Shown in pieces: positions 6,977 through 51,432 of a stretch of 64,000 nucleotides of DNA. Below the pieces are notes generated by a model. The model was given only the letters and a program-made list of their open reading frames with translations, was not told the origin of the DNA and did no database searches. Made by a program: the position numbers and the translations under genes. Position 1 is the first letter of the stretch. Each line of letters opens with the position of its first letter. The stretch comes from Candidatus Heimdallarchaeum aukensis (GTDB lineage: Archaea; Asgardarchaeota; Heimdallarchaeia; Heimdallarchaeales; Heimdallarchaeaceae): contig CP084166.1 of NCBI GenBank assembly GCA_021513695.1, positions 2,720,001-2,784,000 on the forward strand, in the 5' to 3' direction.

Positions 6977-7552
6977 ATGACAAAATTAGATTTTGGTATA
7001 GTAATACAAAATGTAGTAGCAAGTATAAATCTGTACTGCACTATTGATTTAGTGAATGCTTATCAGATGCTTATTGATGACGATCAACTTTTTGTTTCTT
7101 ACAACCCTGAAACTTTTCCTGGTTTGATTCTTAAAATTAAAAAACCAAAAATTTCTTCTCTAGTTTTTTCTAGCGGCAAACTTGTTTTAACTGGCGCTAA
7201 ATCCACTGATATGGTAAATAAAGGCGTTCAACAGATGATTAAAATACTAAGATCTGTTGGCACAGAGATTACTGAAGAGCCTGAAATTATTGTTCAAAAC
7301 ATTGTTGCTAGCGGACATTTTAACAACCGTTCTATTAACTTAGAACTTGCTTCTTTATGGTTAGACCATTCTATGTATGAACCTGAACAATTTCCAGGTT
7401 TAATTTATCGTTTAGCTGAACCAAAAACAGTCTTACTTCTTTTCCAGAGTGGTAATCTTGTTTGTACTGGAGCTAAAACTGAAGAGCAAGTGCGGCAAGC
7501 AGTTGAAAATACGTATAACCACTTAGACGAAATTAATGCCTTTGAATTTTAA
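6977..7552 (+). CDS. tbp: TATA-box-binding protein
   Basis: Two direct repeats carrying NVVASINL.. and NIVASGHF.. plus (S/T)GKLV(L/C)TGAK, the hallmark of TBP. The track ORF begins at a TTG at 6881. The spacing to the first repeat favours ATG 6977 (MTKLDFGIV...). ATG 6947 is an alternative. Confidence 0.9.
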   Translation: MTKLDFGIVIQNVVASINLYCTIDLVNAYQMLIDDDQLFVSYNPETFPGLILKIKKPKISSLVFSSGKLVLTGAKSTDMVNKGVQQMIKILRSVGTEITEEPEIIVQNIVASGHFNNRSINLELASLWLDHSMYEPEQFPGLIYRLAEPKTVLLLFQSGNLVCTGAKTEEQVRQAVENTYNHLDEINAFEF

Positions 7553-10863: not shown

Positions 10864-11844
10864 CTATTCATCTTGAAAATCTCTTATTAGGGTAACTTCA
10901 AAGAGTGGTGCAGCTTTTACAGACCAGAAAACTTGTTTATCTATTATATTGCTTAGAAGGTAACGCGTTATTTCAGTTTCAGTTAAACCTGTTTTTGTTT
11001 TCTTGATACCTTGTAAATCCTTCACAAATTCTATCAACAATTTCGTTAATAGATTTGTAGATCTTATTTGTTCCATTCTGGTGGTAACTAACCAACACGA
11101 AACAGAATCATCAGCAGCCATGATAAACTGACGGTCTCTATATTTCAAAATTTCAATTATAGGAAAATGACTAGAAGAAAATTTACACTGAATGACTGGA
11201 GATAAAATATCAGAGTTCAAATTAGATTGAGGAGTAGTTAATCTCATCTCGTAAACTCCCTTATCAGTTTTGATGTAAGAAATAAACATCTCAACAGTTA
11301 TTTTGTCAACTATTAATTGTTGGATAATGCTTGAAGCTAACCAATTAATTGTTCTATCAAAATTTTTTCCTGAACTAAAGGATGTGCTTAAATACTCGAT
11401 GTTTTTTTTTCTTACTCCATCTGAAAATTTCTTAACTATGGATTTTACTTCAGAGTTAGAGAATTCTTCATCTCTCATGTTAAATAATACTAAAACAGGA
11501 TTTTCTTCTTTTAACCAATTTAAAGAGCGAGTAAACCACTTTTTAGATTCATGTAGCTGATCTTTTTTAGTAATATCTGTAACATAAATAAGTGCATCAG
11601 AGCGAGAAATAAAACTCTTCCATAAGGTCTTTCTAAAAGAAGGAAGACCACCTAAATCAGTAATATCTAATATTATACCATCGGCATTATATAACTCGTG
11701 GTTAACTCCCATTGTAGAAGTGATAATGGTGTTGTTGTAACCTAATAGACGGTTAATGAAATAAGTTTTGCCAGAATTTTCTAATCCAGCAACAGTAACA
11801 GAAATATCACGTTTCAAATAATAATAATTCGGTGACACATCCAA
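10864..11844 (-). CDS. small GTPase with C-terminal roadblock/longin-like domain (Rag/Gtr- or MglA-like)
   Basis: P-loop GLENSGKT, switch II DLGG and an NMRD (NKxD-like) motif lie in the first ~175 aa. The following ~150 aa form an alpha/beta domain. The start codon is TTG. Confidence 0.55.
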   Translation of the reverse strand: MDVSPNYYYLKRDISVTVAGLENSGKTYFINRLLGYNNTIITSTMGVNHELYNADGIILDITDLGGLPSFRKTLWKSFISRSDALIYVTDITKKDQLHESKKWFTRSLNWLKEENPVLVLFNMRDEEFSNSEVKSIVKKFSDGVRKKNIEYLSTSFSSGKNFDRTINWLASSIIQQLIVDKITVEMFISYIKTDKGVYEMRLTTPQSNLNSDILSPVIQCKFSSSHFPIIEILKYRDRQFIMAADDSVSCWLVTTRMEQIRSTNLLTKLLIEFVKDLQGIKKTKTGLTETEITRYLLSNIIDKQVFWSVKAAPLFEVTLIRDFQDE

Positions 11845-17451: not shown

Positions 17452-19464
17452 GTGCGTGATAATTTTTTCTTTCTTAGAAGGTTAAATCTTTTGGGTAAAC
17501 TTGAGAAGTTCGATAAATATTTTTCTTCTATTGATTGGACTTCTATTTTGGATGAAATCAATGAACGCTTGTTTTTTTTTGGTGGAGGTTATAGTCGCAT
17601 TCTTGATTTATTTTCTGCTACTCTCATTGAACGTGGTATTTGGTTTGATTCTCGTTATTATATGAGCAATAAAGTTCTTAAAATTGTCTTTAAGGTTTTA
17701 TCTCAGTTTGCAGATAACAACCTTATTTTTTCTTTAGTTTCTGCTTTGGATGACTACGATTCTGATGTTCGTGCTGCTGTTGCTGAGCTGTTAGGTCTAA
17801 TTGGCCATTCTCTTGCTGTTGACCCCTTAATCAAATTACTCAAAGATGAGAATTGCTTTGTTCGCAGTAGTGTTGTCATAGCTTTGGGTAAGCTTGGTGA
17901 TCCTCGCTCCATTGCTGCATTTAATGATATTGCCTTATATGATGATTCCCAGGGTGTGCGTGCCGATGTTATACGATCCTTGAGAGAGATAGGTGATCCT
18001 CTTGGTGTTTCCCTTCTAATCGAAGCCCTAAAAGATGAGGATAGTATTGTTGTAAGAGCTGCTTTAGAAGTCTTGCTAGAATTGGTTGATTCTGGTTCTG
18101 TTGAGTTATTAATAGAAGCTCTAAAAGATAGGCATTGGTTTGTTCGCAGTAGTGTTGCAGAAGCGTTAGGCAAAATAGGAGACCCTAGAGCCATTGACTC
18201 CCTAGTAGCTGCCTTGAAAGATAAGGATTATTTTGTTCGCAGTAGTGTTGCAAAAGCTTTAAGTAAAATGGACGATTCTAGAGCCATTGACTCCCTAGTA
18301 GCTGCCTTAAAAGATAAAGATTTGCGAATGCGTCGTATTGCTGCAGAAGTGTTGGGAGAAATAGGTGACTCTAGGGCAGTTGAACCCTTAATAGATGTAG
18401 CTCTAAAAGATGAGGGTTTTTTTGTGCGTGAAAAAGCTATAATACTGTTAGGTGAACTAGGTGATTCTAGAGCAGTCAAGCCCTTAATAGAATTACTAAA
18501 AGATGAAGATTGGGAAGTGCGTCGTAATGTTGCAACAGCGTTGGGTAAAATAGGTGACCCTAGAGCCATTGAACCATTAATCAATGCAACTCTATATGAT
18601 GGTAATTGTGAAGTGTGTTATTTTTCTAAAGAGTCACTGATAAAAATAGGTGATATGAGTGCCGTTGAACCTCTAATAGAAGGACTGAAAGATAAGCATC
18701 CTTCTGTTCGTTGTGTTGCTGCTGAAGTGTTAGGTGAACTAGGTGATTCTAGAGCTGTCAAGCCCTTAATAGAATTACTAAAAGATGAAAATAGGAAAGT
18801 GCGTTGTGATGCTGCAGAAGCGTTAGGTAAAATAGGTGACCCTAGAGCCATTGAACCATTAATCAATGCAACATTATACGATGATGTTTTTCATGTGCGT
18901 AATAATGCTGCCTCGGCACTGAGAGAAATAGGCGTTTCTAGTGCTGTTGAACCATTAGTTAAACTAGCCTTATATGATGAAGATTCAGAAGTGCGTAAAA
19001 ATGCTGCTTATGCTTTAGGTGAAATATGTAATCCTAATGTCGTTGACCCATTAATCGATGCAGACCTATATGATGATGAGGAAGTGTGTGAAAATGCTTC
19101 CTCTGAGTTAGGTTTAAGATGTGATCCTAGTTCAGCTGAATTATTAGTAAATTTAACACTCTATGAGGAGGATTCAGTAGTGCGTGCAAGAGCTTTAAAT
19201 TTATTGGTTCAAATACGTGATTCAATTGCAATAGAAAAATTAATCAATATAGTGCTGTATGATGAAGATTCAGAAGTGCGTAAAAATGCCGCAAAAGCCT
19301 TAGGTGAGATAGGTGATACAAATTCATTTGAAACATTAATAATGAATGCCCTAGATGATGACGAGGGGAAAGTGACTAAAAATGTTGAAGAAGCTGTAAG
19401 AATAATGGGCGATCCTGAATTAATTGAATCACTAGAAGATGCCCTATTAAATAAGAGTTGGTAA
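17452..19464 (+). CDS. HEAT-repeat (PBS-lyase HEAT-like) protein, about 18 tandem repeats
   Basis: About 31-aa units such as VRxxAAEALGKIGDPRAIEPLIxALKDxD reiterate from residue ~95 to the C-terminus. The start is uncertain: GTG at 17452, with the first in-frame ATG far downstream. Confidence 0.8.
   Translation: MRDNFFFLRRLNLLGKLEKFDKYFSSIDWTSILDEINERLFFFGGGYSRILDLFSATLIERGIWFDSRYYMSNKVLKIVFKVLSQFADNNLIFSLVSALDDYDSDVRAAVAELLGLIGHSLAVDPLIKLLKDENCFVRSSVVIALGKLGDPRSIAAFNDIALYDDSQGVRADVIRSLREIGDPLGVSLLIEALKDEDSIVVRAALEVLLELVDSGSVELLIEALKDRHWFVRSSVAEALGKIGDPRAIDSLVAALKDKDYFVRSSVAKALSKMDDSRAIDSLVAALKDKDLRMRRIAAEVLGEIGDSRAVEPLIDVALKDEGFFVREKAIILLGELGDSRAVKPLIELLKDEDWEVRRNVATALGKIGDPRAIEPLINATLYDGNCEVCYFSKESLIKIGDMSAVEPLIEGLKDKHPSVRCVAAEVLGELGDSRAVKPLIELLKDENRKVRCDAAEALGKIGDPRAIEPLINATLYDDVFHVRNNAASALREIGVSSAVEPLVKLALYDEDSEVRKNAAYALGEICNPNVVDPLIDADLYDDEEVCENASSELGLRCDPSSAELLVNLTLYEEDSVVRARALNLLVQIRDSIAIEKLINIVLYDEDSEVRKNAAKALGEIGDTNSFETLIMNALDDDEGKVTKNVEEAVRIMGDPELIESLEDALLNKSW
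17750..19330. repeat. DNA-level tandem ~93-bp repeats encoding the HEAT units
   Basis: Nearly identical nucleotide blocks recur, for example ggtgaccctagagccattgaaccattaatcaatgcaac at about 18560 and again at about 18836. They produce long spurious antisense ORFs. Confidence 0.7.
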
Positions 19465-32375: not shown

Positions 32376-33038
32376 TTAAACTAATGAGGTATTTATTAAA
32401 TAAGTAGAGAAAATAGCATTCATTAATTCATTTCTTTCTCTGATTAACTCAGTGATGATTTCTCCAAATCTTTCGTCTCTTATTTCTTCTCTAACTTCAT
32501 TCAACAGTATTTCGTTAAGTCCTTTGTTTAAACATAAAGTTATTTTATTGCATTTATACAAGATTGCTAGTAATAGTTTGGTGTGCATGGTTGCTTTTTT
32601 CGAATTAATTATAGTCTCTTGTAATTGATGCATTAGTTCAATTTTTACGCGTTCTTCTGTACAGAAAATTTTTCTTCTTTTAAAAAATAGAAACCTTTTT
32701 TCAGATTTAGTTAGTATTCCGCTCTTAATCATAACTTCAATAAAAGATTCAAGTATTTGATTTGATTTTATGCCTAATGATCTTATCCAAAACCTAATAT
32801 CGCTTTCATGTTCATTTTGCATTTCTTCAATAATATTCTTAAAAATAGGTTGTGTAGTTTCTGATGAAATAATCTCTATCTTATTATCATCTCTAATTTT
32901 TATTAAGTTTAACATCTCTAAATCGATAATTATAGATGAAGGTAAACCATAAAAAATAAGGTCACTACTACTTTTTTCTATCCTTCCTCTCCTTTGATCA
33001 ATTAACAAGATTATTAACTTCTCTGTTAGTAATAACAT
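32376..33038 (-). CDS. GPP34 (GOLPH3/Vps74-like) family protein
   Basis: The N-terminal LLLTEKLIILLIDQRRGRI...YGLPSSIIIDLEMLNLIKIRDD follows the GPP34 pattern (LxEELLLLALDDxxGK...LAGAxLAELxLxGRI). The FWIRSLG...SGILTKSEKRFLFFKRRKI and LLLAILYKCNKI blocks are also in family order. Confidence 0.45.
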   Translation of the reverse strand: MLLLTEKLIILLIDQRRGRIEKSSSDLIFYGLPSSIIIDLEMLNLIKIRDDNKIEIISSETTQPIFKNIIEEMQNEHESDIRFWIRSLGIKSNQILESFIEVMIKSGILTKSEKRFLFFKRRKIFCTEERVKIELMHQLQETIINSKKATMHTKLLLAILYKCNKITLCLNKGLNEILLNEVREEIRDERFGEIITELIRERNELMNAIFSTYLINTSLV

Positions 33039-38163: not shown

Positions 38164-39039
38164 CTAATCTCTAAGTGAAAATTTGCAGTTAGTGTCTCCT
38201 TTTGCTCTACATTCTGTCTCGCTTACATTTATTTTAGGGTTGTTTAATGCACCCTCAATGAAACCTGTAAAAAAGTCGCACATTGGTTCATCTGATGAGT
38301 AACCTCTACATATTGGGCAGAGTTTCATTACAAATTGATTGTTTTTTTCATCGAAGTCTACTACTGAAATTTCGGATAGCAAATTATAAACATCTTTAGG
38401 GCTAATTACAAGTTTCTTTGAGTAATTTTTTTTAGCTAGCTTATAGCCAAAATATTTTCCAATAGATTCTAGCACATTTTTCTTTATATTTTCATCGTAC
38501 TTAGAATATAGTTCTCTTGCTAACTTTACTGTTCGTTCAGGATAATCATCTAGTAAACCCTTCTCCAGTTCTACTGATTCGAGTAATATAGTTAATGGTA
38601 AATTAGGATCAAAGATATTAAAAAATTCAGGGTTGGTTTGATAAAGATGATATAATTGGTCGTATAATTTTTGAGCCTTTACACCAAAAGTCTCAAAAAT
38701 AGATTTTTCAATATAAGTAATATCTTGGGTTTCAAAGAAATATGAAAAATCTTTCAAAAATTCAATTTCTATTTGCTTAACAAGAAATTGCCCCAACTTT
38801 ACATCTTCTTTTTCAAAGGCATGAACAACAAAAATCAATCCATGCTTTGATGAATAAATGAGGGTTCCATCTTCTGTTTGAATAGCGTAAAGGTTTGAAT
38901 GACCTAATTCTTTTAAGAATAGATCGATTGCACTAGAAACGCCAGCAAAAAGAATTTCATCAATATCTTGTTTTTTGTCAATTGAGAATTTGAATACTGG
39001 TAACCCTGTTAAATGAAAGATGTAAACAGCTTTAATCAT
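38164..39039 (-). CDS. longin-like N-terminal domain plus C-terminal V4R domain protein (TRAPP Bet3/Trs-like)
   Basis: The C-terminal CPICRGY...CDFFTGFIEGALNN...ETECRAKGDTNCKFSL matches the V4R consensus (C..C...G..xG....ETxCxAxGxxxCxF). The N-terminal ~120 aa (MIKAVYIFHLTGLPVFKFS...) have a roadblock/longin-like pattern. Confidence 0.5.
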   Translation of the reverse strand: MIKAVYIFHLTGLPVFKFSIDKKQDIDEILFAGVSSAIDLFLKELGHSNLYAIQTEDGTLIYSSKHGLIFVVHAFEKEDVKLGQFLVKQIEIEFLKDFSYFFETQDITYIEKSIFETFGVKAQKLYDQLYHLYQTNPEFFNIFDPNLPLTILLESVELEKGLLDDYPERTVKLARELYSKYDENIKKNVLESIGKYFGYKLAKKNYSKKLVISPKDVYNLLSEISVVDFDEKNNQFVMKLCPICRGYSSDEPMCDFFTGFIEGALNNPKINVSETECRAKGDTNCKFSLRD

Positions 39040-39788: not shown

Positions 39789-40000
39789 ACAAAATGTCTT
39801 ATCCTTATTTTTAAGATTTTTGGGTTCAAGAATTAAAAAATGAAAAAAAGCGATGAAATTTTTGGTAAATTCTCGAATTTTTTAAACTTATATCTCCACG
39901 AATTCTATTGCTTGATATAACAATTCTTTTCTTAACGCTTTCCAAAAAGAATTTCAAAGGTTTTATTTTCTCTTCATTATTTTTATCGGTTCTTCACAAC

Positions 40001-40010
40001 ATTTAAATAT
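40001..40010 (+). promoter_or_regulatory. candidate TATA box (atttaaatat) for the nuo operon
   Basis: TATA-like decamer about 185 nt upstream of the nuoJ ATG, followed by an unusually GC-rich palindromic leader. Confidence 0.3.
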
Positions 40011-40036
40011 GCAACTGTAAAAATTACTCGTCGATT

Positions 40037-40110
40037 GTGTGCAGTTGTGTCATTAGTGCGCACAAAGTGCATAACCATGCACAGCGGTTCTAGATAGACA
40101 CTCTGTACAG
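40037..40110 (+). promoter_or_regulatory. GC-rich nested inverted repeats in the nuo leader (candidate operator or structured 5'-UTR)
   Basis: The outer imperfect inverted repeat is TGTGCAGTTGTGTC ... GACACTCTGTACA. Inside it are the palindrome GTGCGCAC and the perfect inverted repeat GTGCAT-aacc-ATGCAC. Local GC is far above the intergenic background. Confidence 0.4.
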
Positions 40111-40194
40111 ACAAAATAAGAATAATTGTGAATAGAATGATGAAAACGGAAAGAAATTCTGACTTCTTCTATAATTTATTTTTTGGTGATAACA

Positions 40195-40728
40195 ATGGTT
40201 AATGTTTATGCAATTGACTATATCATTATGGCTGTGCTTATTATAATAAGCGCAATAATGGCTCTAGAAGCAAGAGAAATAGTCTATGCAATTTTTTTCT
40301 TTGACCTGTTTACAATAGGCATTGGAGGAATGTTTCTTTTATTCAACGCTGGTTATGTGGCAATGTTTCAGTTGGCAGTCTATGCTGGTGCTGTGGCAGT
40401 AACAGTGTTGTTTGCAGTAATGCTTACAAGACGAACTGCGACAGGAAAAGAAATTATCTCTTTTGCATCAATACGAAATAAAATTGCAAGTCTTGTTTTA
40501 GCTCTCAGCATTGCAGCATTAATGCTTATTCTAGTTTCGAGATATGATTGGGCTACTCCTGCTGGTGATTATCCTGATCCATTAGGTGGTGGAGCGATAT
40601 TTACAAGTATAGTTACGAACTATGTTGTACCTTTTCTAGGAATTAGTCTAATTCTTGCTGCTTCTTTGGTAGGAAGCGTTGCATTGCTAAGAGAAGAGAG
40701 AAGTAAAAAGGAGGTTGCCAGTAAATGA
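40195..40728 (+). CDS. nuoJ: complex I subunit J (ND6-like)
   Basis: YAGAVAVTVLFAVMLT and the NuoJ TM pattern. The track start at 40183 is TTG; the likely start is ATG 40195, 5 nt after GGTGA. Confidence 0.8.
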   Translation: MVNVYAIDYIIMAVLIIISAIMALEAREIVYAIFFFDLFTIGIGGMFLLFNAGYVAMFQLAVYAGAVAVTVLFAVMLTRRTATGKEIISFASIRNKIASLVLALSIAALMLILVSRYDWATPAGDYPDPLGGGAIFTSIVTNYVVPFLGISLILAASLVGSVALLREERSKKEVASK

Positions 40729-41087
40729 CAGCAGTTCCAACAGAGTGGACAGTTTATTTGTCAGTAGTAATTTTGTCGATAGGTCTCTATGGTATTTTTA
40801 CTAGACGAAGTATGATACGCATTCTCCTTGGAGTAGAATTAATTTTAGGTGCAGCGACGCTGAATTTTATTGTATTTTCAATGTCTGTGCTAAATGGAGA
40901 TGTAGTAGGTCACATTCTGACCTTATTCGTTATAGCTCTAGCTGCAGCTGAAACAATTATCGGGTTAATCTTGCTTATTATGCTTTACAAAGATGTTGGC
41001 TCTATTGACATTTCTTTAGCAAGTGATGTAAAAGCGGAAGAGCAAGATGAAAATAAATTAACAAGAGGTGAAAAAGAAGATGGGTAA
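40725..41087 (+). CDS. nuoK: complex I subunit K (ND4L-like)
   Basis: LSIGLYGIFTRRSMIRILLGVELILGAATLNF is typical of NuoK. Its ATGA start overlaps the nuoJ stop. Confidence 0.85.
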   Translation: MTAVPTEWTVYLSVVILSIGLYGIFTRRSMIRILLGVELILGAATLNFIVFSMSVLNGDVVGHILTLFVIALAAAETIIGLILLIMLYKDVGSIDISLASDVKAEEQDENKLTRGEKEDG

Positions 41088-41580
41088 ATTTGCAGATTTT
41101 TTTAAGAAATGGGCTCGTAGTTCCTCTATTTGGCCCGTCAGATATTGTGTAGCCTGCTGTTCTACAGAAATGGCGGCAGCAATGGCTTCAAGATTTGATA
41201 TGGAACGTTATGGTGTGATGCCAGTTTGGGGACCTCGTCAAGCTGATTTTCTCATGATTGGTGGAATTGTTACTAAAAAAGCAGCAACAAGAATAAAAAC
41301 AATTTATGAGCAAATGCCTGAACCGAAGTATGTACTAGCTTTAGGTGCTTGTACAAGTGGTGGAGGACCTTATTATGATAGTTACAATGCAGTTCAAGAT
41401 GTAAGTGAGATTGTTCCTATTGATGTATATGTTCCTGGTTGCCCTCCTAGACCAGAAGCAATCCTAAGAGGAATTGAGATGATACAAGAAATGATTAAGA
41501 AAGGAATTAGAGCTGATGCTCCTCTACAAGTCGATGAAAAGACCAAATTGAAGGAGGTTCTAAAGTCATATGAACGTTGA
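41080..41580 (+). CDS. nuoB: complex I subunit B (PSST, N2 cluster)
   Basis: The CCSTEM, GACTSGGGPY and VPGCPP cysteine motifs. The track start at 41068 is GTG; the likely start is ATG 41080 after GAGGTGA. Confidence 0.9.
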   Translation: MGKFADFFKKWARSSSIWPVRYCVACCSTEMAAAMASRFDMERYGVMPVWGPRQADFLMIGGIVTKKAATRIKTIYEQMPEPKYVLALGACTSGGGPYYDSYNAVQDVSEIVPIDVYVPGCPPRPEAILRGIEMIQEMIKKGIRADAPLQVDEKTKLKEVLKSYER

Positions 41581-42040
41581 AGAGTTAAAAAAGAAGTTTC
41601 TAGACAATATAAAAACGGCTCAAGAAGAGAAAATTCAAGATAATCAGATTTTTATTAAAATCGACAAAGAGGATATCAAAACTGTTTCTAAATTTATCAA
41701 GGAGCAATTTGATGACGTAAATAAAATACTAGAGCAAGTTTTTGCTATAGATTTTCCTGATAGAAATGAAATGGAAATGATTTACACCTGGTGGTTTATC
41801 GAATATCATGCCTTAGTTCATTTTCGTGTAATCTTACCATATGATGATCTGAAAGTTGTATCTATTCAAGATGATTGGGTCGCTGCTAATTGGCATGAGC
41901 GAGAAACTTGGGAAATGTTTGGGATAGATTTTGAAGGACATCCAAACTTAAAGCAATTTTTGCTCTCAGACGAACTTTTCGGTAAACATCCTATGAGGAA
42001 ATCTTTCAAAATTGAGCATAATCCGGAGGAAGCAAAATGA
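41570..42040 (+). CDS. nuoC: complex I subunit C (30 kDa)
   Basis: NuoC-like length and conserved WHERETWEMFGIDFEGHPNL block. AGGAGGT upstream. Confidence 0.8.
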   Translation: MNVEELKKKFLDNIKTAQEEKIQDNQIFIKIDKEDIKTVSKFIKEQFDDVNKILEQVFAIDFPDRNEMEMIYTWWFIEYHALVHFRVILPYDDLKVVSIQDDWVAANWHERETWEMFGIDFEGHPNLKQFLLSDELFGKHPMRKSFKIEHNPEEAK

Positions 42041-43152
42041 CAGAAAATAAAGAAAGAAGTTCAAGTTTAGTTTCTTTTAGCTATGGTCCTCAACATCCTG
42101 GAACACATCCTTATTCCTTACTTTTAACTGTTGATGGAGATCGAATAGAAAAAGTAGAAGCACAGATTGGTTATGTTCATAGAGGATTAGCTAAACAAGC
42201 TGAATCAAGAACATTTATCCAAGCTTTACCAATAATGGAAAGATCTTGTTTCATTGATTCAGTTAACCATCAATTTGGTTATGTCATGGCAGTGGAAAAA
42301 TTAGCCGGTATAGAAGTACCAGAAAGAGCAGAATACCTTAGAGTTATTGCTGCTGAATTATCACGCATGAACTCTTTGATAAGCTGGTTTGGTGGTTACG
42401 CAGCTGAAACTGGAATTAACTCAGCTTTCATGTGGGCTTGGAAAGATAGAGAAATGTTTCTTGACCTATTTGGCCATCTTGCAGGAAGCAGAGTTTCTGT
42501 AATGTACTTAACTATCGGAGGAGTTAGGTGGGATTGGAATGATAAGCTAACCAATTTAACTTGGGAAATTATTGATTATATGGAAGAGAGACTAAAAATA
42601 CACAAAAAGCTGGTTATGAAGAATTCAATATTCAAAAAACGAACTAAAGGTGTAGGAGTCGTTTCAAAAGAGAAAGCACTAGAATATGCATTTACAGGGC
42701 CTAACTTAAGAGCTTCAGGAGTACAAGGCGATATTAGAATTTTAGAACCCTATAGTGTTTATGATCATTTCAAATTTACTCCTAAAGTAATGACTGAGGG
42801 AGATAACTGGGCTAGAACCATGATTCGTCTACACGATATTGAAACTAGTATGGAGATTCTAAAACAAGCTCTTCCAGAGATTCCCGAAGGAGAATACAAG
42901 ACTAAAGTTCCTCTAAAATTAAGAGCTAATGCTGGCGAGGCATATGCAAGAGTAGAGTTGTCTAGAGGAGTCATGGGTTATTATATTAGAACAGTGGAGG
43001 ACAAATCAACAAAACCCTATAGAGTTAAAATAAGAGGACCTTCATTCTCACACTTCCAAATTGTAGAAGATATTCTAGTTGGAACACATATGGCTGATAT
43101 TCCAATAATCAAAGGTTCTCTAGATGTATGTCCAGCAGATTTAGATAGATAA
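42037..43152 (+). CDS. nuoD: complex I subunit D (49 kDa), no NiFe-binding cysteines
   Basis: SFSYGPQHPGTHPYSLLLTVDGDRI and the RGxEK-like core. The N- and C-termini lack the RxCGxC and DPCxxC motifs of hydrogenase large subunits. Confidence 0.85.
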   Translation: MTENKERSSSLVSFSYGPQHPGTHPYSLLLTVDGDRIEKVEAQIGYVHRGLAKQAESRTFIQALPIMERSCFIDSVNHQFGYVMAVEKLAGIEVPERAEYLRVIAAELSRMNSLISWFGGYAAETGINSAFMWAWKDREMFLDLFGHLAGSRVSVMYLTIGGVRWDWNDKLTNLTWEIIDYMEERLKIHKKLVMKNSIFKKRTKGVGVVSKEKALEYAFTGPNLRASGVQGDIRILEPYSVYDHFKFTPKVMTEGDNWARTMIRLHDIETSMEILKQALPEIPEGEYKTKVPLKLRANAGEAYARVELSRGVMGYYIRTVEDKSTKPYRVKIRGPSFSHFQIVEDILVGTHMADIPIIKGSLDVCPADLDR

Positions 43153-43165
43153 GAAGGTGAAAGTA

Positions 43166-44140
43166 ATGAATACAGATTTTCTATTTATAAAAGTCGCAGT
43201 ATTTCCTGGTGTCCTTTTCGTACTATTTGGATGTCTTTATTTGATGTATTTCGAAAGGAAAACAATAGCGAGAATTCATGGAAGAATAGGGCCACAATAT
43301 GTAGGCTATGGAGGTTTGTTACAAACAATAGCTGATCTAATGAAATTAATGTTTAAGGAATGGATATTCCCAAAAACAGCAAAGAAAGCAGCTCTATTTC
43401 TAACCCCTATTGCTCTATTTCTACTTGCTTTTCTACCCCTATCGGTTGTTCCATGGGGAGAAAATTGGTATGTAGCAGATTTCAGTGTTACATTGATCTT
43501 TGCATTTGTGGTTATAGCTGCTATTCCTTTCTTAAGCCTTCTACTTGGTTGGTCCTCAGGAAGTAAATATTCTTTGATAGGCGGATACAGAGCTGCATCA
43601 CAACAAATTGTGTTTGAGGTTCCTTTATTTCTTTCTGCATTAACTCCTGCTATACTTGCAAATAGTTTGAGTTTAATGGATATTACAAAAAATCAGAAAA
43701 TATGGTTCCTTGTACTGAATCCAATCGCTGCTTTCGTCTTTTTCGTTTCTATGCTTGCAATGATGGAAAGACAACCTTTTGATATTCCTGAAGCAGAATC
43801 CGAATTAGTATTTGGTTGGAAAACAGAGTTAAGTGGTATTTTCTTTGGTTGGTCAATATTCGCTGGTTACACTATTATGATCGGAGGAAGTGCTCTATTT
43901 GTTGTTTTATTCATGGGTGGTTTTAACGGGCCAGGAAATAATTTAGGTGTCCTATGGTTTATGCTCAAACTAGCTTTGATATGGCTTATTCTTTTCGCTA
44001 TGAGAGCAGTTTTACCAAGATATAGAATGGATCAGATACTAAGAATGTCTTGGAGGTTGATGATACCACTTTCTTTGGTCAGTATTGGCTTATCAATCGG
44101 GTTACTATTTGCATTCCCCAATTTCTTCAGAGGTGTATAA
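43166..44140 (+). CDS. nuoH: complex I subunit H (ND1-like)
   Basis: The ERKTIARIHGRIGPQYVGYGGLLQTIADLMKL region and eight TM helices. The track start at 43157 is GTG; the likely start is ATG 43166 after AAGGTGA. Confidence 0.85.
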   Translation: MNTDFLFIKVAVFPGVLFVLFGCLYLMYFERKTIARIHGRIGPQYVGYGGLLQTIADLMKLMFKEWIFPKTAKKAALFLTPIALFLLAFLPLSVVPWGENWYVADFSVTLIFAFVVIAAIPFLSLLLGWSSGSKYSLIGGYRAASQQIVFEVPLFLSALTPAILANSLSLMDITKNQKIWFLVLNPIAAFVFFVSMLAMMERQPFDIPEAESELVFGWKTELSGIFFGWSIFAGYTIMIGGSALFVVLFMGGFNGPGNNLGVLWFMLKLALIWLILFAMRAVLPRYRMDQILRMSWRLMIPLSLVSIGLSIGLLFAFPNFFRGV

Positions 44141-44183
44141 TTTGGCAGATAAAAACTTTCTAACTAACATAAGATCGTTATAC

Positions 44184-44627
44184 ATGGCTATTGCACAGAT
44201 GTTCAAGAAACCATTCACAACAAAGTATCACACAACAAACAAAGAAAGAATAGTGGAATACGACAGATTGCGTGGAGAACTTATAATGAACTTACCCAAA
44301 TGTGTGGGTTGTACACTATGTGTTCAAGCTTGTCCTAATGCTGCATTGAAAATGGTTTCATATGACAATGGAAATCCAAGAAACAAAAAGAAACATGTTC
44401 CTTCTTTTAATTTAGGACTCTGCAGTTTTTGCGCTTTATGTGTAGAAGCTTGTCCTTATGATGTCCTAGAAATGGGTAAAGTGTACGATAGAGCCTATGC
44501 CACTATGGAAGATATGCTTCGTTCTCCTGAGGAGATGTATGAGGATTGGATTGAACAGAAAGGAGAAGAAGATGAAATAGATCCTGAAGAAATTGAAACT
44601 GACAAAATCGATATCGAGGAGGATTAA
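44184..44627 (+). CDS. nuoI: complex I subunit I (2x[4Fe-4S] ferredoxin-type)
   Basis: CVGCTLCVQACP and CSFCALCVEACP. The track start at 44085 overlaps nuoH; ATG 44184 avoids the overlap. An acidic C-terminal tail. Confidence 0.8.
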   Translation: MAIAQMFKKPFTTKYHTTNKERIVEYDRLRGELIMNLPKCVGCTLCVQACPNAALKMVSYDNGNPRNKKKHVPSFNLGLCSFCALCVEACPYDVLEMGKVYDRAYATMEDMLRSPEEMYEDWIEQKGEEDEIDPEEIETDKIDIEED

Positions 44628-44628
44628 A

Positions 44629-46086
44629 ATGGTTGTTAGTACAGTTTTGTTATTAATTTCTATAATAGCTCCTTTAGTTATAGGATTCTTATTATTCATT
44701 CCATTCCTTCAAAAATATGCAGGGTGGATAACAGCTGGAGTATCTACTGTCGTTTTAGCCTTCTTAATTACTGCTTCTGTTCCAATATGGAACAGTTCTG
44801 TAACAAAAGTGGAACTCCAATGGGCTCCAGCAGCTGGTCTGTTAATGGGATTCTTGTTGGACAATCTATCAGCACTTATTGCATTATTGATAGCAGTTGT
44901 TTCTACCTTAACAGCTTTCTATTCCATAAAATATATGGAGCATGAAGAGAGAAAAGGATTATACTTTAGCTTATACAACTTCTTCTTTGCAGGTATGCTC
45001 GGAGTAGTTCTATCTACAAACCTCCTAGAGTTTTTCTTCTTCTGGGAACTTATGCTAATTCCTAGTTACTTAATGATTGTTTATTGGGGTACTAAAGCTA
45101 AAGCAGCAAAAGTTGCATTGAAGTATTTCTTCTATACTCAAGTGGGTTCTATTGGAATAATTGTTAGTTTTGCAATTATTGCCTTTTATGGTAACAGTTT
45201 AAACATTGCAGAAATTGCAACTAATCTCTCAATATCTTCACTTCCAAATGCTATACTCTACTTAACCTTTATACTACTGATGATAGGTTTAGCTGTAAAA
45301 CTCGCTATCTTTCCTTTCCAAAATTGGTTACCTGATGCTCACGGAGAAGCTCCAACACCAATAAGTGTATTGCTCTCTGCAGTTATGATCGAAACAGCAG
45401 CTTATGCAATAGTTCGTATTGCTATGCAATTTTATGGAGAGATTTTCGAAACATCTAGGATTGTCTTTGAGAGTGTAGGAGTATTTACCCTCTTGTATGG
45501 AGGCTTCTTAGCTTTAAGGCAAACAGATGTTAAAAGACTACTCGCTTATTCTTCTGTAAGCCAAATGGGTTATGTCTTTATTGGTTTATCAACATACAAC
45601 CAATTTGGTGTTTCAGGAGGATTATTCCACATATTAGCTCATGGATTTGGAAAAGGGATACTCTTCATGACTGCAGGAATTCTCATACATGAAGTGAAAA
45701 CTAGAGATATTACTGCAATGGGTGGATTAGGTAGAAAAATGCCTTTCACTGCTATAATTTCATTTATTGCAGCATTAAATCTCGCTGGAACACCCCCACT
45801 AAGTGGATTCTTCAGTGAATGGTTTATCTTTAGTGGCGCATTCTATCAAGCAACAACAGAGTTTGTAATTCTAGGTATTTTTCTATTACTAGGTTCAATA
45901 TTAAGCGCAGCTTATATGCTACGTTTTCTGTGGAAAGTGTTCCTTGGTCCTTTACCAGGAGAACTAGAAAAGACAAAAGAAACAAAGCTATTACTTTGGG
46001 TTCCAGGAGCGATTTTAGCACTATTGGCTATATTCTTCGGTATCTTTGCTAATGTTGCAATTGAACTTTTCAGTACAGTGATTTGA
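44629..46086 (+). CDS. additional antiporter-like subunit, NuoM/ND4-like (or MrpD-like)
   Basis: WLPDAHGEAPTPISVLLSAVMIETAAYAIVRI is a NuoM-type motif. The ATG at 44629 directly follows the nuoI stop, and GAGGAGGA lies upstream. Confidence 0.75.
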   Translation: MVVSTVLLLISIIAPLVIGFLLFIPFLQKYAGWITAGVSTVVLAFLITASVPIWNSSVTKVELQWAPAAGLLMGFLLDNLSALIALLIAVVSTLTAFYSIKYMEHEERKGLYFSLYNFFFAGMLGVVLSTNLLEFFFFWELMLIPSYLMIVYWGTKAKAAKVALKYFFYTQVGSIGIIVSFAIIAFYGNSLNIAEIATNLSISSLPNAILYLTFILLMIGLAVKLAIFPFQNWLPDAHGEAPTPISVLLSAVMIETAAYAIVRIAMQFYGEIFETSRIVFESVGVFTLLYGGFLALRQTDVKRLLAYSSVSQMGYVFIGLSTYNQFGVSGGLFHILAHGFGKGILFMTAGILIHEVKTRDITAMGGLGRKMPFTAIISFIAALNLAGTPPLSGFFSEWFIFSGAFYQATTEFVILGIFLLLGSILSAAYMLRFLWKVFLGPLPGELEKTKETKLLLWVPGAILALLAIFFGIFANVAIELFSTVI

Positions 46087-46095
46087 GGTGAAAAA

Positions 46096-48126
46096 ATGGA
46101 AGCTATAATAATTACAGTATTACTAACAGTTTTGGTTCCTCTTGTAGGAAGCTTGATAAGTCCATTATTAAATAAAATATTGAAAGAGAAAATACACTTT
46201 TATGCTATAGCCATAGCAGTTATAACTGCTGCACTTGGAATAACTTCTTTTTCAATTGGTTTAAGAATGGAGGAAATAGAGCCTTGGACATTCAATTGGA
46301 TTAAAGATCTATTAAATCCTGGAGAGTTTATACAAGGAGGAATTTTTCTAGATAAATTCTCGTTACTTATGCTAATGCTTGTTTCAGTAATAGCCATGTT
46401 GATTGTAATCTTTAGCCATGATTATATGCACGGTGATGATGCTTTACCAAGATATTATTTCTGGATACTATTCTTTATTGGCAGTATGCTAGGGCTAATA
46501 GTATCAGACAACTTGATTCAGTTGTTTATATTCTGGGAAGGTGTAGGATTAGCCAGTTATGGACTAATTGGTTTCTGGAACAGAGAAAATGAAAATGTGA
46601 AGAGTGGTACAAAAGCTTTTCTTGTTACAAGAGCTGGAGATATGGGTTTACTTGCTGCGATAATATTGATTTACTTTAATGTAGGAACACTAAGTTTCTC
46701 TGAATTCACCTCTGATTTTGGAAATATTTTAGGTGAAAGTAAATTAATAGTGTTAGTAGGAGTCTTAATACTCGTTGGAATTGCAGGTAAATCTGCTCAG
46801 TTTCCTTTGCAGTTCTGGTTACCGGAAGCTATGGCAGGTCCTTCAACCGTATCGGCTCTCATCCATGCAGCAACAATGGTTAAAGCTGGTATTTATCTCG
46901 GAGGAAGATTCTTACCTTATTTCTTAACCGCAGCGCCTTTATATGCTGAGCAATTAGAAGTTCTCTTCTTAATAATTGCAGCTGTTGGAGTATTCACAGC
47001 TTTTCTTGCAGCATCTATAGGCATGGCAGCGAGAGAATTCAAAAAAATACTGGCTTTTTCAACTATTTCGCAATTAGGATACATGTTGCTTGCAATTGGT
47101 GTTGCTGGTCTGCTTCATAATGGAGAAGATGCTCTATTTGCTTCTATCTTCCACATGACCTCCCATATGTTCTTCAAAGCATTACTCTTCCTTGGTGCAG
47201 GAGCTATCTTACATTCTGTAACAACTACGAAGGATATCTTTGAAATGGGAGGACTGAGAAAATATATGCCTAAAACAACATTGTTGTTCAGTGCAGGAGC
47301 ATTATCTTTAGCTGGAATACCTCCTTTTGCAGGTTTCTTCTCCAAAGAGACAATATTTTCAAAAATTATTGAGTATATTGAAGAAACTTCATCAGTATGG
47401 GGGTGGATATTCCTGTCATTAGCAGTAATTGCAGCGATAATGACATTATTTTACACGATGCGAATGATAGGTGTAGTTTTCTTTGGAGAAAGTGGAGAAC
47501 ATGTAAAAGAAGCTGAAAAACATGGACATCTTCATGATCCTAGTTGGTTTATGATGGGCCCTTTACTAGTTTTAGCAATAGGATCAACAATATGGGGATT
47601 CTTTGGCGGATTAATAGAACATTGGTTTTATCACGGAGATCAAACCTATGGAGAATGGATAGGCCATATCTTCAGAAATGGATGGGGATGGTTAATATTA
47701 GCTATAATTGTAATTGTTGGTGGAATACCAGGATACCTAATTTACTTTAGAAAAGTAAACAATACTTTCTTTGCCAACTCGTTCTTACAGAAGTTTCTGT
47801 ATAATCGTTGGTATTGGAATTCCTTAATGTTAACTGTTTTCGTTGACGGAACAACAAAAGTTGGAGATCTGCTTCAATATCCAGAAAAAGCACTTGATCA
47901 TGGAACAAACTCCCTTGCAAGTGGAGTTCTTGCTACTGCTAATGCTTTCGAAGTTCTTGATCGCAAAATAGTTGACGGTGCAGTAAACAAAATAGCTTAT
48001 GGTTTCCAATGGATGGGGATGAAACTTCGAAGATTCGAAACAGGCTTCATATCTCAATACCTGTGGATAGGAGCATTTGGTTTTGTTATTCTATTAATTG
48101 GAGTAACACTTGCTATTATATTGTGA
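46096..48126 (+). CDS. nuoL: complex I subunit L (ND5-like, with long C-terminal extension)
   Basis: WLPEAMAGPSTVSALIHAATMVKAGIYL, 676 aa with the C-terminal region typical of NuoL. GAGGTGAAAAAATG start context. Confidence 0.85.
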   Translation: MEAIIITVLLTVLVPLVGSLISPLLNKILKEKIHFYAIAIAVITAALGITSFSIGLRMEEIEPWTFNWIKDLLNPGEFIQGGIFLDKFSLLMLMLVSVIAMLIVIFSHDYMHGDDALPRYYFWILFFIGSMLGLIVSDNLIQLFIFWEGVGLASYGLIGFWNRENENVKSGTKAFLVTRAGDMGLLAAIILIYFNVGTLSFSEFTSDFGNILGESKLIVLVGVLILVGIAGKSAQFPLQFWLPEAMAGPSTVSALIHAATMVKAGIYLGGRFLPYFLTAAPLYAEQLEVLFLIIAAVGVFTAFLAASIGMAAREFKKILAFSTISQLGYMLLAIGVAGLLHNGEDALFASIFHMTSHMFFKALLFLGAGAILHSVTTTKDIFEMGGLRKYMPKTTLLFSAGALSLAGIPPFAGFFSKETIFSKIIEYIEETSSVWGWIFLSLAVIAAIMTLFYTMRMIGVVFFGESGEHVKEAEKHGHLHDPSWFMMGPLLVLAIGSTIWGFFGGLIEHWFYHGDQTYGEWIGHIFRNGWGWLILAIIVIVGGIPGYLIYFRKVNNTFFANSFLQKFLYNRWYWNSLMLTVFVDGTTKVGDLLQYPEKALDHGTNSLASGVLATANAFEVLDRKIVDGAVNKIAYGFQWMGMKLRRFETGFISQYLWIGAFGFVILLIGVTLAIIL

Positions 48127-48135
48127 GGTGAAAAA

Positions 48136-49605
48136 ATGATAGGAATATTAACTACTTTAATAACTGTTCCCCTTATAGGAGCAATAATTGTGTTCTTGAT
48201 TGGAACAAAAAATAAAAAACTTTCAAGACTTTTAGCTCAATTTATAACATTTGCTGAGTTATCAATCTCTTGGAGTTTATTCGCTTTCTATGATAGAATT
48301 AATAAAAGGCTCAATATTGAGGATGAATTTGTACGATGGATAGATTCTTTTTCTATTCATTTTTCGCTCAGCATTGATGGAATAAGCTTTGTGCTAGTAC
48401 TACTCTCAACTACCATCGTATTTCTAGTTGCTCTCCAATCTACATTCGTAATAGAAGAAAATGAACATTTATACTATACTTTGCTTTTACTATTTGAGAC
48501 AGGAATTTTAGGAGTCTTCTTGGCTTCAAACTTAATAATATTCTACATTTTCTGGGAATTAGTTTTAGTTCCAATGTTCTTTCTTATAGGTGAATGGGGT
48601 GGAGAAAGAAAACGTTATGCTGCAGTCAAGTTCTTCATATTTACACATGTAGGAAGCTTGTTTATGCTACTAAGTTTTCTGTATCTATTCATTAACATGA
48701 AAACATTTAGTATTATAGAGTTAAGTCAAAAGGATATACCTGAAATTGTTCAAACCATTGCAGCAATCGGTATCTTCCTTGGAGTGGCAGTAAAACTACC
48801 CGCTGTTCCAATACATTCATGGTTACCTGATGCACATGTAGAAGCTCCAAGTCCAGTAAGTGTATTACTCGCAGGTCTATTGCTAAAAATGGCAGGATAT
48901 GGTTTTCTTAAACTAGGATTGAATATTGTCCCAGAAGGAATAAAAGTCCTGCGTCCTGTTCTTATAACCTTAGGTGTAGTTGGAGCTTTTTATGCTGCTT
49001 TTGCTGCTATAGCACAAAAGGATCTCAAGAGAGTTATTGCTTTTACTTCAATTAATCACATGAGTTTTATCATGATCGCAGTAGCAGTTGCAACACCCCT
49101 TGCAATTATTGGAGCAGTATTTCAAATGATAAGCCATGGAATAATCATAGGGCTAATGTTCTTCCTCTCTGGTATAATACAACACCATGTAGGAACCAGA
49201 GAAATAAACTTACTTGGAGGAATAAAAAAGAAACCTGTTTTAACTGGTTTCTTAATTGTTGGCTCTATAGCTGCATTTGGCGCTCCTCCAATGAGTGGAT
49301 TCATTGCAGAAATGATGATATTCTTTGCTTCGATTCCAGTATATCCTTGGGTAATGACTGTGGCTGCTTTCTCAATCGTAATAACCTCTGTTATTTACCT
49401 TTGGTTACTAACTAGAGTACTATTTACTAATAAAGCAGAAGAAGTAGTTTTTGAGGACCTAGTATCTCATCAGAACTACTTAAAATATGAATTATCAATA
49501 GTTGGTCTCTTATTTATACCTATATTCGTTCTTGGATTCTTTCCAAATTTGTTAGTATCAATTATTGAACAAGCTGTGAACCAGCTTCTTAAAATAATAG
49601 GGTGA
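48136..49605 (+). CDS. nuoM: complex I subunit M (ND4-like)
   Basis: WLPDAHVEAPSPVSVLLAGLLLKMAGYGFLK. GAGGTGAAAAAATG start context. Confidence 0.85.
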   Translation: MIGILTTLITVPLIGAIIVFLIGTKNKKLSRLLAQFITFAELSISWSLFAFYDRINKRLNIEDEFVRWIDSFSIHFSLSIDGISFVLVLLSTTIVFLVALQSTFVIEENEHLYYTLLLLFETGILGVFLASNLIIFYIFWELVLVPMFFLIGEWGGERKRYAAVKFFIFTHVGSLFMLLSFLYLFINMKTFSIIELSQKDIPEIVQTIAAIGIFLGVAVKLPAVPIHSWLPDAHVEAPSPVSVLLAGLLLKMAGYGFLKLGLNIVPEGIKVLRPVLITLGVVGAFYAAFAAIAQKDLKRVIAFTSINHMSFIMIAVAVATPLAIIGAVFQMISHGIIIGLMFFLSGIIQHHVGTREINLLGGIKKKPVLTGFLIVGSIAAFGAPPMSGFIAEMMIFFASIPVYPWVMTVAAFSIVITSVIYLWLLTRVLFTNKAEEVVFEDLVSHQNYLKYELSIVGLLFIPIFVLGFFPNLLVSIIEQAVNQLLKIIG

Positions 49606-49610
49606 AAAAA

Positions 49611-51041
49611 ATGGAAGTAATTATTTATCCTTTAATCGCACTCCTTGTTGGTATTGTGTTAAGTTTAATAACTGGAACACTAAAAAAAGGAGATGTTGCA
49701 CGTACAATAAGTATCTTAAGCCTTATAACAGCGATATCTTTGCTTGCGGTTTTCTATCCTTTCAACGGTCAAAGACTATTCAGTGACACAATTGTTCTAG
49801 ATAATTTTGGAGGATTTTTTGTTTTTCTATTCTTATCTCTCGCTGTATTTATTCTACTTGGAAGCACAAAAGTGTTGGATGAACATCCTGAAATGCCGGC
49901 ACTTTTACTTCTTTCTACAATTGGGATGGCTTTAATCGGAATTACTGATAACTTAGTGATGATCTTTGTAGCTTGGGAATTAATGAGTTTGACAACATAC
50001 GTATTAGCAGGTCTTGGAAAAAGAGAACAATCAACAGAAGCGGCCATGAAATACTACATTTATGGAAGTGTTTCTTCTGCCCTTATTCTATTCTCTATTA
50101 GCTTGATATACGGTATAACTGGCTCTATGCAATTGTCCATAATAGCTACTGTTGCATCTTCACTAGACACAACGGCAATAGGTGTTCTGCTTTTATCTGC
50201 AACAATATTCATCTTTGGTTTTGGATATAAAGTAGGAATAGTTCCATTCCATCTTTGGTTACCAGATGTGTATGAAGGAAGCCCCGCTCCAGTAAGTGGG
50301 CTTCTAGCAGGTGTATCAAAGAAAGTAGCTATTGTCGCAACAGCTAGAATCTTTTTGACTGGATTTGAGAGTGTAGACTTTAATTGGAAAATCCTTTACG
50401 CAATTATAGCTGTAATAACTATGACTGTTGCTAATATTGCTGCTTTATCTCAAAGAAAAGTTGTAAGAATGTTTGCATATAGCTCGATCTCTCAAATAGG
50501 ATACATGATTGTCGGATTTGCTATATTTTCTCCTGAAGGATTGGCAGCAACGATGATGCAACTAACTGTTCATGCAGTTACAACCGTTGGAGCCTTTATC
50601 ACAATAGGTATTATAGCAAAGAAACTAGATCTCAGGACATATGATGACTATAAAGGTTTAGGAGCTAGAAAACCTGTGTTAGGACTAGGTTTGACAATAA
50701 TGATGTTGTCTTTAGCTGGCATTCCTCCTCTTGCAGGATTTGTCAGTAAATTGTTCTTGTTTACTGAAGCAGTAAGAGCTAATTTACTGTGGTTAGCAAT
50801 CGTTTTAGTTTTGAACAGCGTTTTATCGCTTGGTTACTATCTCCCTCTCATAAGAAACATGTATCTTGAGAAACCAGAGAAAACAACAGAAGGCGAAGAA
50901 ACGAAAAAAGAAAAATTCGACACTAGGACTATAGGTCCTATAATGGTCAATATTATGACTACATTAGCTATTGTAATTATACCAATCTTTGCACAAAAGA
51001 TTTTCGACATAATCACTGAAGCAGCTAAAAATGTAATATAG
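49611..51041 (+). CDS. nuoN: complex I subunit N (ND2-like)
   Basis: FHLWLPDVYEGSPAPVSGLLAG. The track start at 49602 is GTG overlapping the nuoM stop; the likely start is ATG 49611 (MEVIIYP...). Confidence 0.85.
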   Translation: MEVIIYPLIALLVGIVLSLITGTLKKGDVARTISILSLITAISLLAVFYPFNGQRLFSDTIVLDNFGGFFVFLFLSLAVFILLGSTKVLDEHPEMPALLLLSTIGMALIGITDNLVMIFVAWELMSLTTYVLAGLGKREQSTEAAMKYYIYGSVSSALILFSISLIYGITGSMQLSIIATVASSLDTTAIGVLLLSATIFIFGFGYKVGIVPFHLWLPDVYEGSPAPVSGLLAGVSKKVAIVATARIFLTGFESVDFNWKILYAIIAVITMTVANIAALSQRKVVRMFAYSSISQIGYMIVGFAIFSPEGLAATMMQLTVHAVTTVGAFITIGIIAKKLDLRTYDDYKGLGARKPVLGLGLTIMMLSLAGIPPLAGFVSKLFLFTEAVRANLLWLAIVLVLNSVLSLGYYLPLIRNMYLEKPEKTTEGEETKKEKFDTRTIGPIMVNIMTTLAIVIIPIFAQKIFDIITEAAKNVI

Positions 51042-51054
51042 AGGTGAAAAAAAG

Positions 51055-51432
51055 ATGATGTTATTTGATGCAATAATTCCAGTACTCGCATTGGGCCTAG
51101 CAGGTATGATTTTCGTAGGTATAATGATGACTTTATCAGTCTTGACTAAACCTAAAGGAGAAAAAACAAAGCTAAAGTTACAAACCTATGAAAGTGGAGA
51201 AGTTCCAGTAACTGACCGTTTAGGATTCCAATTTAATTATCAATACTTTGTTTATGCTATAGTTTTCACTGCTTTGGACGTTATGTCTATTTTCTTATAT
51301 GCGTGGGCTGTTGATTCTGCCCGTTTAGAAACAAACACCTTACTAACGATACTTGGCTTTATCACAATTTTATTCTTGGGCTTTGTTTATGTATCTGTAG
51401 CAACAAGAGAGTGGAAGAAAAATATAATGTAA
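51055..51432 (+). CDS. nuoA: complex I subunit A (ND3-like)
   Basis: YESGEVPVTDRLGFQFNYQYFVYAIVFTALDVMSIFLYAWAV is the NuoA signature. GAGGTGAAAAAAAGATG start context. Confidence 0.85.
   Translation: MMLFDAIIPVLALGLAGMIFVGIMMTLSVLTKPKGEKTKLKLQTYESGEVPVTDRLGFQFNYQYFVYAIVFTALDVMSIFLYAWAVDSARLETNTLLTILGFITILFLGFVYVSVATREWKKNIM

Follow-up and report, generated by a model that had tools for sequence, protein, structure and literature searches.

Proposed promoter-proximal operators at the nuo promoter of Heimdallarchaeum aukensis

Archaeal promoter-proximal operators of repressors and dual regulators have been described for the Thermococcales TGM (TrmBL1/Tgr), for the SurR sites at mbh/mbx and for MDR1, LrpA and Phr. 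In bacteria, the 18-bp operator of the Rex family (ROP; TTGTGAA-N4-TTCACAA) is located upstream of nuo and cyd operons, and in AT-rich archaeal genomes GC-rich islands have been used to find small RNAs. To our knowledge, nothing is known about the regulation of electron-transport genes in Asgard archaea, a group in which the Heimdallarchaeia stand closest to eukaryotes of all known archaea. In this study, a stretch of 64,000 nucleotides (nt) from the 3.08-Mb genome of the Asgard archaeon Candidatus (Ca.) Heimdallarchaeum aukensis was analyzed, which is termed the window below. The subject is a GC-rich element with nested dyad symmetry that sits in the 406-bp intergenic region (39789-40194) ahead of nuoJ, the first gene of a complex I-like (nuo) operon. 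The comparison of orthologous promoters makes it fairly probable that this element is a cluster of DNA operators for a putative dimeric, sequence-specific transcription factor that would control the nuoJKBCDHI...A promoter. The features needed for this comparison are the following.

40002-40009, plus strand: TATA box TTTAAATA of the nuo promoter, preceded by CACAACA and the sole TATA-like octamer within 400 nt upstream of nuoJ
40046-40064, unstranded: site A, TGTGT-CATTAGTGC-GCACA, an exact copy of TGTGY-N8/9-RCACA, proposed operator
40066-40083, unstranded: site B, AGTGC-ATAACCAT-GCACA, directly abutting site A, with one core mismatch and containing GTGCAT-aacc-ATGCAC, proposed auxiliary operator
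40195-40728, plus strand: nuoJ, first gene of the operon, with a product 100% identical to NuoJ of Ca. Heimdallarchaeum aukensis

The conserved unit is a DNA palindrome of 18-19 bp, TGTGY-N8/9-RCACA, with the half-site TGTG[CT][AG]AAA. It resembles the archaeal operators in being a short palindrome at or just downstream of a TATA box, and its position relative to the TFB-recognition element (BRE) and the TATA box varies between promoters, as theirs does. SurR offers a further parallel, as it controls operons for complex I-related membrane complexes by redox state and likewise stands in a complex I-linked setting. The sequences themselves are different (TATCAC-N5-GTGATA for TGM, GTTn3AAC for SurR), and the sites of the window are located downstream of the predicted start and not between TATA box and transcription start.

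The nuo palindrome shares TGTG/CACA cores, an A/T-rich centre and a location upstream of a complex I operon with the Rex operator. This likeness may suggest a redox-linked repressor by analogy, and the sensing of redox or oxygen that the initial annotation ascribed to the element is pure conjecture. CRP/FNR-type sites (TGTGA-N6-TCACA) also contain a TGTG...CACA inverted repeat that is recognised as sequence and not through pairing. However, the TGTG and CACA cores of Rex and CRP sites are 8 bp apart and those of all eight exact nuo sites 10-11 bp, and the nuo motif is therefore not a member of the Rex or CRP motif families. No Rex homologue was found, no search having been aimed at one, and the Rex family is bacterial. 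Compared with CRP/FNR sites, its spacing is 2-3 bp longer, its fifth base is C or T instead of A, and it belongs to an archaeal promoter with a TATA box. Literature searches returned no description of the motif or of nuo regulation in Asgard archaea.

A palindrome shared by nuoJ-first promoters

Orthologous promoters were obtained from the nuoJ-first clade, which is represented by seven lineages in a collection of 5.8 billion proteins: the window, L001/L018, L003/L013, L004, L005, L006 and L007. An initial contig scan with NuoJ alone gave no matches, alignment-based scans added L013, and a metagenome scan re-found L003 as L012. The NuoJ proteins of the other lineages are 53-66% identical to that of the window, and the next NuoJ homologues detected in a profile search lie in canonical nuoBCDHIJK operons. 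Of the six other lineages, five carry TGTGY-N8/9-RCACA upstream of nuoJ (L001 three times; L004, L005, L006 and L007 once each). No matches were present elsewhere in the orthologous loci, and the full 16.4-kb contig L018 contains just three sites, all of them upstream of nuoJ. All eight matches in about 110 kb are confined to the 260 nt that precede a nuoJ start codon. In the window, the strict motif matched once (40046-40064; 0.21 expected) and the relaxed form TGTG-N10/11-CACA likewise matched at site A alone.

All 4-mer gapped palindromes with spacers of 0-14 were enumerated over the seven 350-nt upstream regions. TGTG-N10/11-CACA ranked first and was present in six of the seven lineages (composition-aware binomial p = 1.2e-13); none of 300 dinucleotide-shuffled sets reached this value, the best null being 2e-7. 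Among 18 half-sites (both window sites included), the bases T, G, T and G occur 17, 18, 18 and 18 times with C/T, A/G and a stretch rich in A after them. Spacers vary from lineage to lineage, and the half-site sequence, as read from this comparison, is conserved and not merely its pairing. With a position weight matrix (PWM) trained on the orthologues only, leaving out the window's own sites, site A ranked first of all window positions (14.2 bits). With the full PWM, site B obtained 13.9 bits. It contains the 8-mer GCATAACC, which is shared by L004, L006 and L007 but points the other way relative to nuoJ there, as would suit a DNA site and not an RNA element.

The upstream regions as wholes could not be aligned with MAFFT, and Smith-Waterman alignments of the element with its orthologues were marginal at best (p about 0.04-0.05). 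The element as a unit is not alignable to its orthologues, and its conserved feature is the palindrome. The annotation had also taken the density of dyad symmetry as a sign of function and had left the choice between an operator and a structured 5'-leader. The case that the symmetry exceeds chance comes from the orthologous promoters, the RNA fold contributing modestly, and the operator option was supported under a different parse, TGTGY-N8/9-RCACA, the sole palindrome common to 6/7 upstream regions.

Marginal alignments of this kind would also be expected from a functionless GC-rich patch of chance or historical origin, such as the remnant of a local duplication or inversion, its TGTG...CACA being shared by common descent. 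The modest hairpin z-score, a PWM score of site A that is unremarkable when compared with shuffles, and a distance from TATA box to start codon about 40 nt longer than in four relatives, compatible with an insertion, fit such a patch as well. It is considered rather improbable. The palindrome is kept in six of the seven lineages despite the divergence of NuoJ, unalignable flanking non-coding DNA and differing spacers, and the result of the unbiased scan and the absence of the motif from the rest of the about 110 kb also speak against a patch without function, as does a TATA overlap at exactly the same offset in three lineages.

Promoter geometry and the nuo leader

The string CAACATTTA(A/T)A is common to the TATA boxes of the window, L001 and L007. 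Because of the usual archaeal spacing between TATA box and start, transcription of the nuo operon is predicted to begin near 40030-40035. The TATA octamers of L001 (third site), L004 and L005 share their last base with the palindrome, as the T of TGTG (gap -1). The 19-bp site hence fills the space between TATA box and predicted start and would not be transcribed from that promoter, and a palindrome upstream of the predicted start in three lineages argues for a DNA operator and not for an RNA element. L001 has two further copies of the palindrome upstream of its TATA box.

The translation signals of the leader are listed here.

40185-40190, plus strand: Shine-Dalgarno (SD) sequence GGTGAT of nuoJ; the window, L004, L005, L006 and L007 all have GGTGA 5-8 nt ahead of the start codon
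40137-40202, plus strand: possible leader upstream open reading frame (uORF) of 21 codons, MMKTERNSDFFYNLFFGDNNG, with an SD-like GTGAAT upstream and a TAA stop that overlaps the nuoJ start in ATGGTTAA

The nuoJ ATG at 40195 lies 185 nt after the TATA box, a distance for which the initial annotation had given about 110 nt, and 85 nt after the element. At about 160 nt, the predicted nuo leader is long compared with those of other genes of the window, whose TATA-like boxes are found 30-90 nt from the start codon. The distance from the conserved TATA box to the nuoJ start codon amounts to 148-153 nt in L004, L005, L006 and L007, 193 nt in the window, 101 nt in L001 and about 78 nt in L003/L013. 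The nuo operon seems to be characterised by a long leader whose length is nearly constant. An alternative leaderless promoter, TATAATTT (40171-40178), was rejected, as its geometry relative to the ATG does not fit and an SD sequence is present.

The leaders of L004, L005 and L007 contain uORFs of 23-31 codons that were identified by eye, and the stop codon of the L005 uORF also overlaps the nuoJ start. The encoded peptides are barely similar. All three strain substitutions within the window uORF (40147, 40180 and 40194) are nonsynonymous, and its peptide has no Pfam match.

A proposed model of operator function

Archaeal regulators generally act from operators beside the core promoter (PMC12993045). 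At the nuo promoters, a dimeric transcription factor would bind each palindrome, which in the window means the exact site A and the abutting weaker site B. If transcription starts near the predicted position, these sites would span about +13 to +50 of the transcript, and a bound factor would hinder the polymerase at initiation or early elongation, so that repression is the probable outcome. In L001, L004 and L005, a factor on the TATA-abutting palindrome would block recruitment of the polymerase, as archaeal repressors classically do from this position. For L006, L007 and the two upstream copies of L001, where the sites are located upstream of the conserved TATA box, the direction of regulation may be different and activation or a second promoter is possible.

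Several observations weigh against an operator. The placement is non-uniform: in the window, 36 nt separate the TATA box from the site downstream of it, and L006 and L007 have their sites 60-105 nt ahead of the conserved TATA box. The 14.2 bits of site A are equalled by the best match in about a third of shuffled windows, and the significance of the site is therefore positional and comparative and not intrinsic. Site B falls below 6 bits with the PWM that leaves the window out. L003 and L013 hold a degenerate copy alone (7.7 and 8.4 bits), situated just after an upstream TATA-like box. The motif was first spotted by eye and the unbiased scans came later, with all seven lineages of the clade already in the sample; the motif scan of H. 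aukensis covers 64 kb of the 3.08-Mb genome. A specific DNA-binding regulator was not found among the 40 open reading frames (ORFs) of the window searched with Pfam, which revealed TBP, V4R/HNOB-like, metabolic and eukaryotic-signature genes alone. In the orthologous loci, a conserved neighbouring regulator gene was not seen, and the neighbourhood upstream of nuoJ is not conserved.

The question of whether Heimdallarchaeia respire, and by which route, is central to models of eukaryogenesis (bioRxiv 10.1101/2024.07.04.601786). An operon-specific conserved palindrome provides a handle on the control of their electron-transport genes, as it can serve as bait for the regulator, as a pattern to scan for co-regulated genes and as a means to query the signal, be it oxygen, redox state, iron or another. 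In kind, the element would be an ordinary promoter operator with a new motif, of interest for the organism and the pathway rather than for the mechanism.

Composition and parts of the GC-rich element

The element (40036-40110) has a G+C content of 46.7% and is flanked by sequences with 25% and 24%. It tops all intergenic 75-nt stretches of the window (5.8 kb of intergenic DNA), for which the runner-up reaches 38.7% and the mean is 24.3%. The intergenic DNA of the window as a whole has 24.3% G+C and its coding DNA 32.9%. The GC-richness described in the initial annotation was thus confirmed as the intergenic maximum of the window, and all strings quoted there were located, with the TATA box at 40002-40009. 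Two further parts of the element are described by coordinates.

40038-40109, plus strand: nested dyad with a potential 72-nt transcript hairpin; outer arms at 40038-40051 and 40097-40109, 45 nt apart
40094-40115, plus strand: block ATAGACACTCTGTACAGACAAA, with weak similarity to the ATAGAGACGTCTGTGAGACAAA found shortly before nuoJ in L003 and L013 (local alignment p about 0.04)

The left outer arm TGTGCAGTTGTGTC (40038-40051) and the right outer arm GACACTCTGTACA (40097-40109) had been placed 48 nt apart and were measured at 45 nt. Between them lie GTGCGCAC (40056-40063) and GTGCATAACCATGCAC (40067-40082), and site A covers the inner end of the left outer arm together with most of GTGCGCAC. 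Neither GTGCGCAC nor GTGCAT-N4-ATGCAC is over-represented in the window; each occurs once, in the element, so that the 64-kb window holds none of the further GTGCAT-N4-ATGCAC copies for which a search had been suggested. A check for repeats and mobile elements likewise found no second copy of the element in the window or in the fetched loci other than strain variants. The outer arms carry further TGTGC-like and ACAC-like words that have no conserved counterpart in the orthologues. By this comparison, the outer inverted repeat and its nested hairpin are specific to the H. aukensis lineage. The ATAGAGACGTCTGTGAGACAAA stretch is 100% conserved between L003 and L013, in contrast to the diverged sequence farther from nuoJ on its upstream side.

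Strain variants (L008-L011) are identical to the window across the element. They show no differences in 39962-40146, a segment of 185 nt that includes the TATA box and the element, and three in 40147-40194. A hypervariable patch with 23 differences in about 80 nt (39880-39961; L009 and L010) lies between the divergent promoters and adjoins the invariant 185 nt.

The element is also covered by an open frame on the minus strand (39983-40114, 43 codons, TTG start), and its G+C content exceeds the intergenic level, as might be found for a small protein gene. This frame runs through the TATA box and starts with TTG in the absence of an SD sequence; a Pfam match was not obtained, and tblastn did not reveal conservation in the orthologous loci. 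A search of 1.84 billion representative proteins yielded one weak fragmented match (E = 5e-5, 21% identity, to a 413-aa protein). A coding function of the minus strand is accordingly considered highly implausible.

RNA structure

The 72-nt plus-strand hairpin has a predicted free energy of -25.4 kcal/mol (z = -2.1), and 7 of 200 shuffled sequences folded equally well. The z-score of the minus strand is -0.5 and that of the whole leader -1.6. This RNA-fold signal is suggestive but weak. The folding check proposed in the initial annotation therefore returned a modest positive result for the plus strand and a negative one for the orthologous leaders, in which sliding-window fold z-scores did not reveal a comparable, positionally equivalent or consistently stable hairpin. 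Site A as an isolated RNA does not form a stable hairpin (-2.7 kcal/mol, z = -0.1), and in the minimum-free-energy fold neither of its halves pairs with the other, each having a different partner. Site B as RNA corresponds to an apical hairpin of 6 bp (-7.1 kcal/mol).

Searches with Rfam 15 gave no matches, rRNA included, in the whole 64-kb window at gathering thresholds, and with E-values up to 10 the region 39800-40300 produced sub-threshold matches alone (E = 3.4-8.7). The sole match that overlaps the hairpin is a weak MicF (40062-40148, E = 8.5), with 16.9 bits compared to a gathering score of 79. ARAGORN detected no tRNA or tmRNA genes in the window, and the hairpin is not followed by a terminator or T-run.

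These results bear on a structured 5'-leader, in which the 72-nt hairpin would act in cis as an mRNA stabiliser, as a protein or ligand switch or in the control of the uORF or the nuoJ start. A plus-strand fold of -25 to -27 kcal/mol (z about -2.1) that exceeds the minus-strand fold owing to G-U pairs would agree with such a leader. The same holds for the highest G+C content of any intergenic segment, a known mark of structured RNA in AT-rich archaea, for the long predicted leader and its recurrence in four lineages (148-153 nt from TATA box to start), and for a loop sequence TAACCAT complementary to the nuoJ start ATGGTTA. Nevertheless, we consider a structured leader unlikely, as no Rfam family matched the element even at E-values up to 10, the z-scores are modest for the hairpin and for the whole leader (-1.6), and neither the hairpin nor its outer arms are conserved in the orthologues. 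The conserved core lies upstream of the predicted start in three lineages and it is sequence, not pairing, that is conserved. Covariation is unreadable in the strain variants, because their element sequences do not differ.

Another reading that was weighed is a separate small non-coding RNA gene transcribed from its own promoter (TATA box at 40002), for example a single-hairpin H/ACA-like guide RNA. As in the GC-rich RNA islands of other archaea, the element forms the strongest intergenic GC peak of the window, with a TATA box about 30 nt upstream and hairpin potential. The hairpin (about 72 nt) combines a lower stem of about 9 bp with a large internal region from which a pocket could form, and it is accompanied by two ACA trinucleotides, of which ACA 40107-40109 is paired in the minimum-free-energy fold and ACA 40112-40114 lies 3 nt past the stem. 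In contrast to such islands, the element lacks an RNA family match (including archaeal H/ACA and other small-RNA families in Rfam), a terminator and a conserved structure, and its core is situated upstream of the predicted start in three lineages. At the apex, a plain stem of 6 bp (GUGCAU/AUGCAC) is capped by an AACC loop, and a K-turn, K-loop or tandem G-A motif is absent. Furthermore, no T-run or terminator follows the hairpin, the element was not found elsewhere and is not conserved as a unit in relatives, and the SD sequence of nuoJ implies a leadered mRNA that reads through the region. A separate RNA gene is thus very improbable.

For the favoured reading as a cluster of DNA operators, the hairpin in the transcript would mostly be a by-product of palindromes that lie downstream of the predicted start. 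A more far-reaching version appears doubtful to us: the palindromes may be the operator pair of a lineage-specific redox- or oxygen-responsive regulator that arose with the nuoJ-first operon and moved into the leader in H. aukensis, where the hairpin would add RNA-level control of mRNA stability or of uORF/nuoJ translation. This would constitute the first defined cis-regulatory code for respiration in Heimdallarchaeia.

The complementarity of TAACCAT (40072-40078, loop and 3' side of the apical hairpin) to the nuoJ start region ATGGTTA (40195-40201) is exact, and ATAACCAT is also found in the leaders of L003 and L013. This could be an anti-start pairing or a chance occurrence in AT-rich DNA. 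A candidate C/D box small RNA between ATGATGA (40137-40143) and CTGA (40159-40162) was rejected, as it consists of one C-like and one D-like box 15 nt apart and lacks C'/D' boxes and an adjacent terminal stem. Rfam matches to C/D box families at this position reached 13.6-19.9 bits compared to gathering scores of 43-70 (E = 3-9), and the likeness is most likely due to chance. In L003 and L013, a similar GTGATGA string is present where the nuoJ SD sequence would be expected.

Further recurring sequences and genomic setting

A second block, (AT)CGGTTATGCA-N7-GTGTCACAACCG with the ends CGGTT...AACCG, recurs in L003 (545-580), L013 (2323-2354), L006 (378-405), L007 (148-178) and L004 (238-280; all coordinates approximate). 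The window contains a shortened form, ATCGGTT-CTTCACAAC, at 39983-40001 just upstream of the TATA box. The 7-mers CACAACC and GGTTATG each occur in four lineages, which is marginally above shuffled sequences.

According to ORF and Pfam analyses, the nuo operon occupies 40195-51432 on the plus strand in the order nuoJ-K-B-C-D-H-I, followed by four antiporter-like subunits and by nuoA as the last gene. The nuoJ-first gene order is unusual, and the operon is devoid of nuoEFG. Upstream of the intergenic region, the minus strand encodes two small membrane proteins, a V4R-domain protein and a sulfotransferase. The V4R-domain protein (38164-39039, minus strand, 291 aa) is encoded 1.1 kb ahead of the nuo promoter. 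Its V4R domain is located at the C-terminus and contains four cysteines, and a weak match of the HNOB type (haem-NO-binding) was also obtained. The protein could sense small molecules; a DNA-binding domain was not detected in it, and it is not kept beside nuo in other lineages. Elsewhere in the window, a TBP gene and eukaryote-like genes typical of Asgard archaea, encoding an Arf-family small GTPase, a HEAT-repeat protein and a GPP34/GOLPH3-like protein, are located at 6881-7552, 10864-11844, 17452-19464 and 32376-33038.

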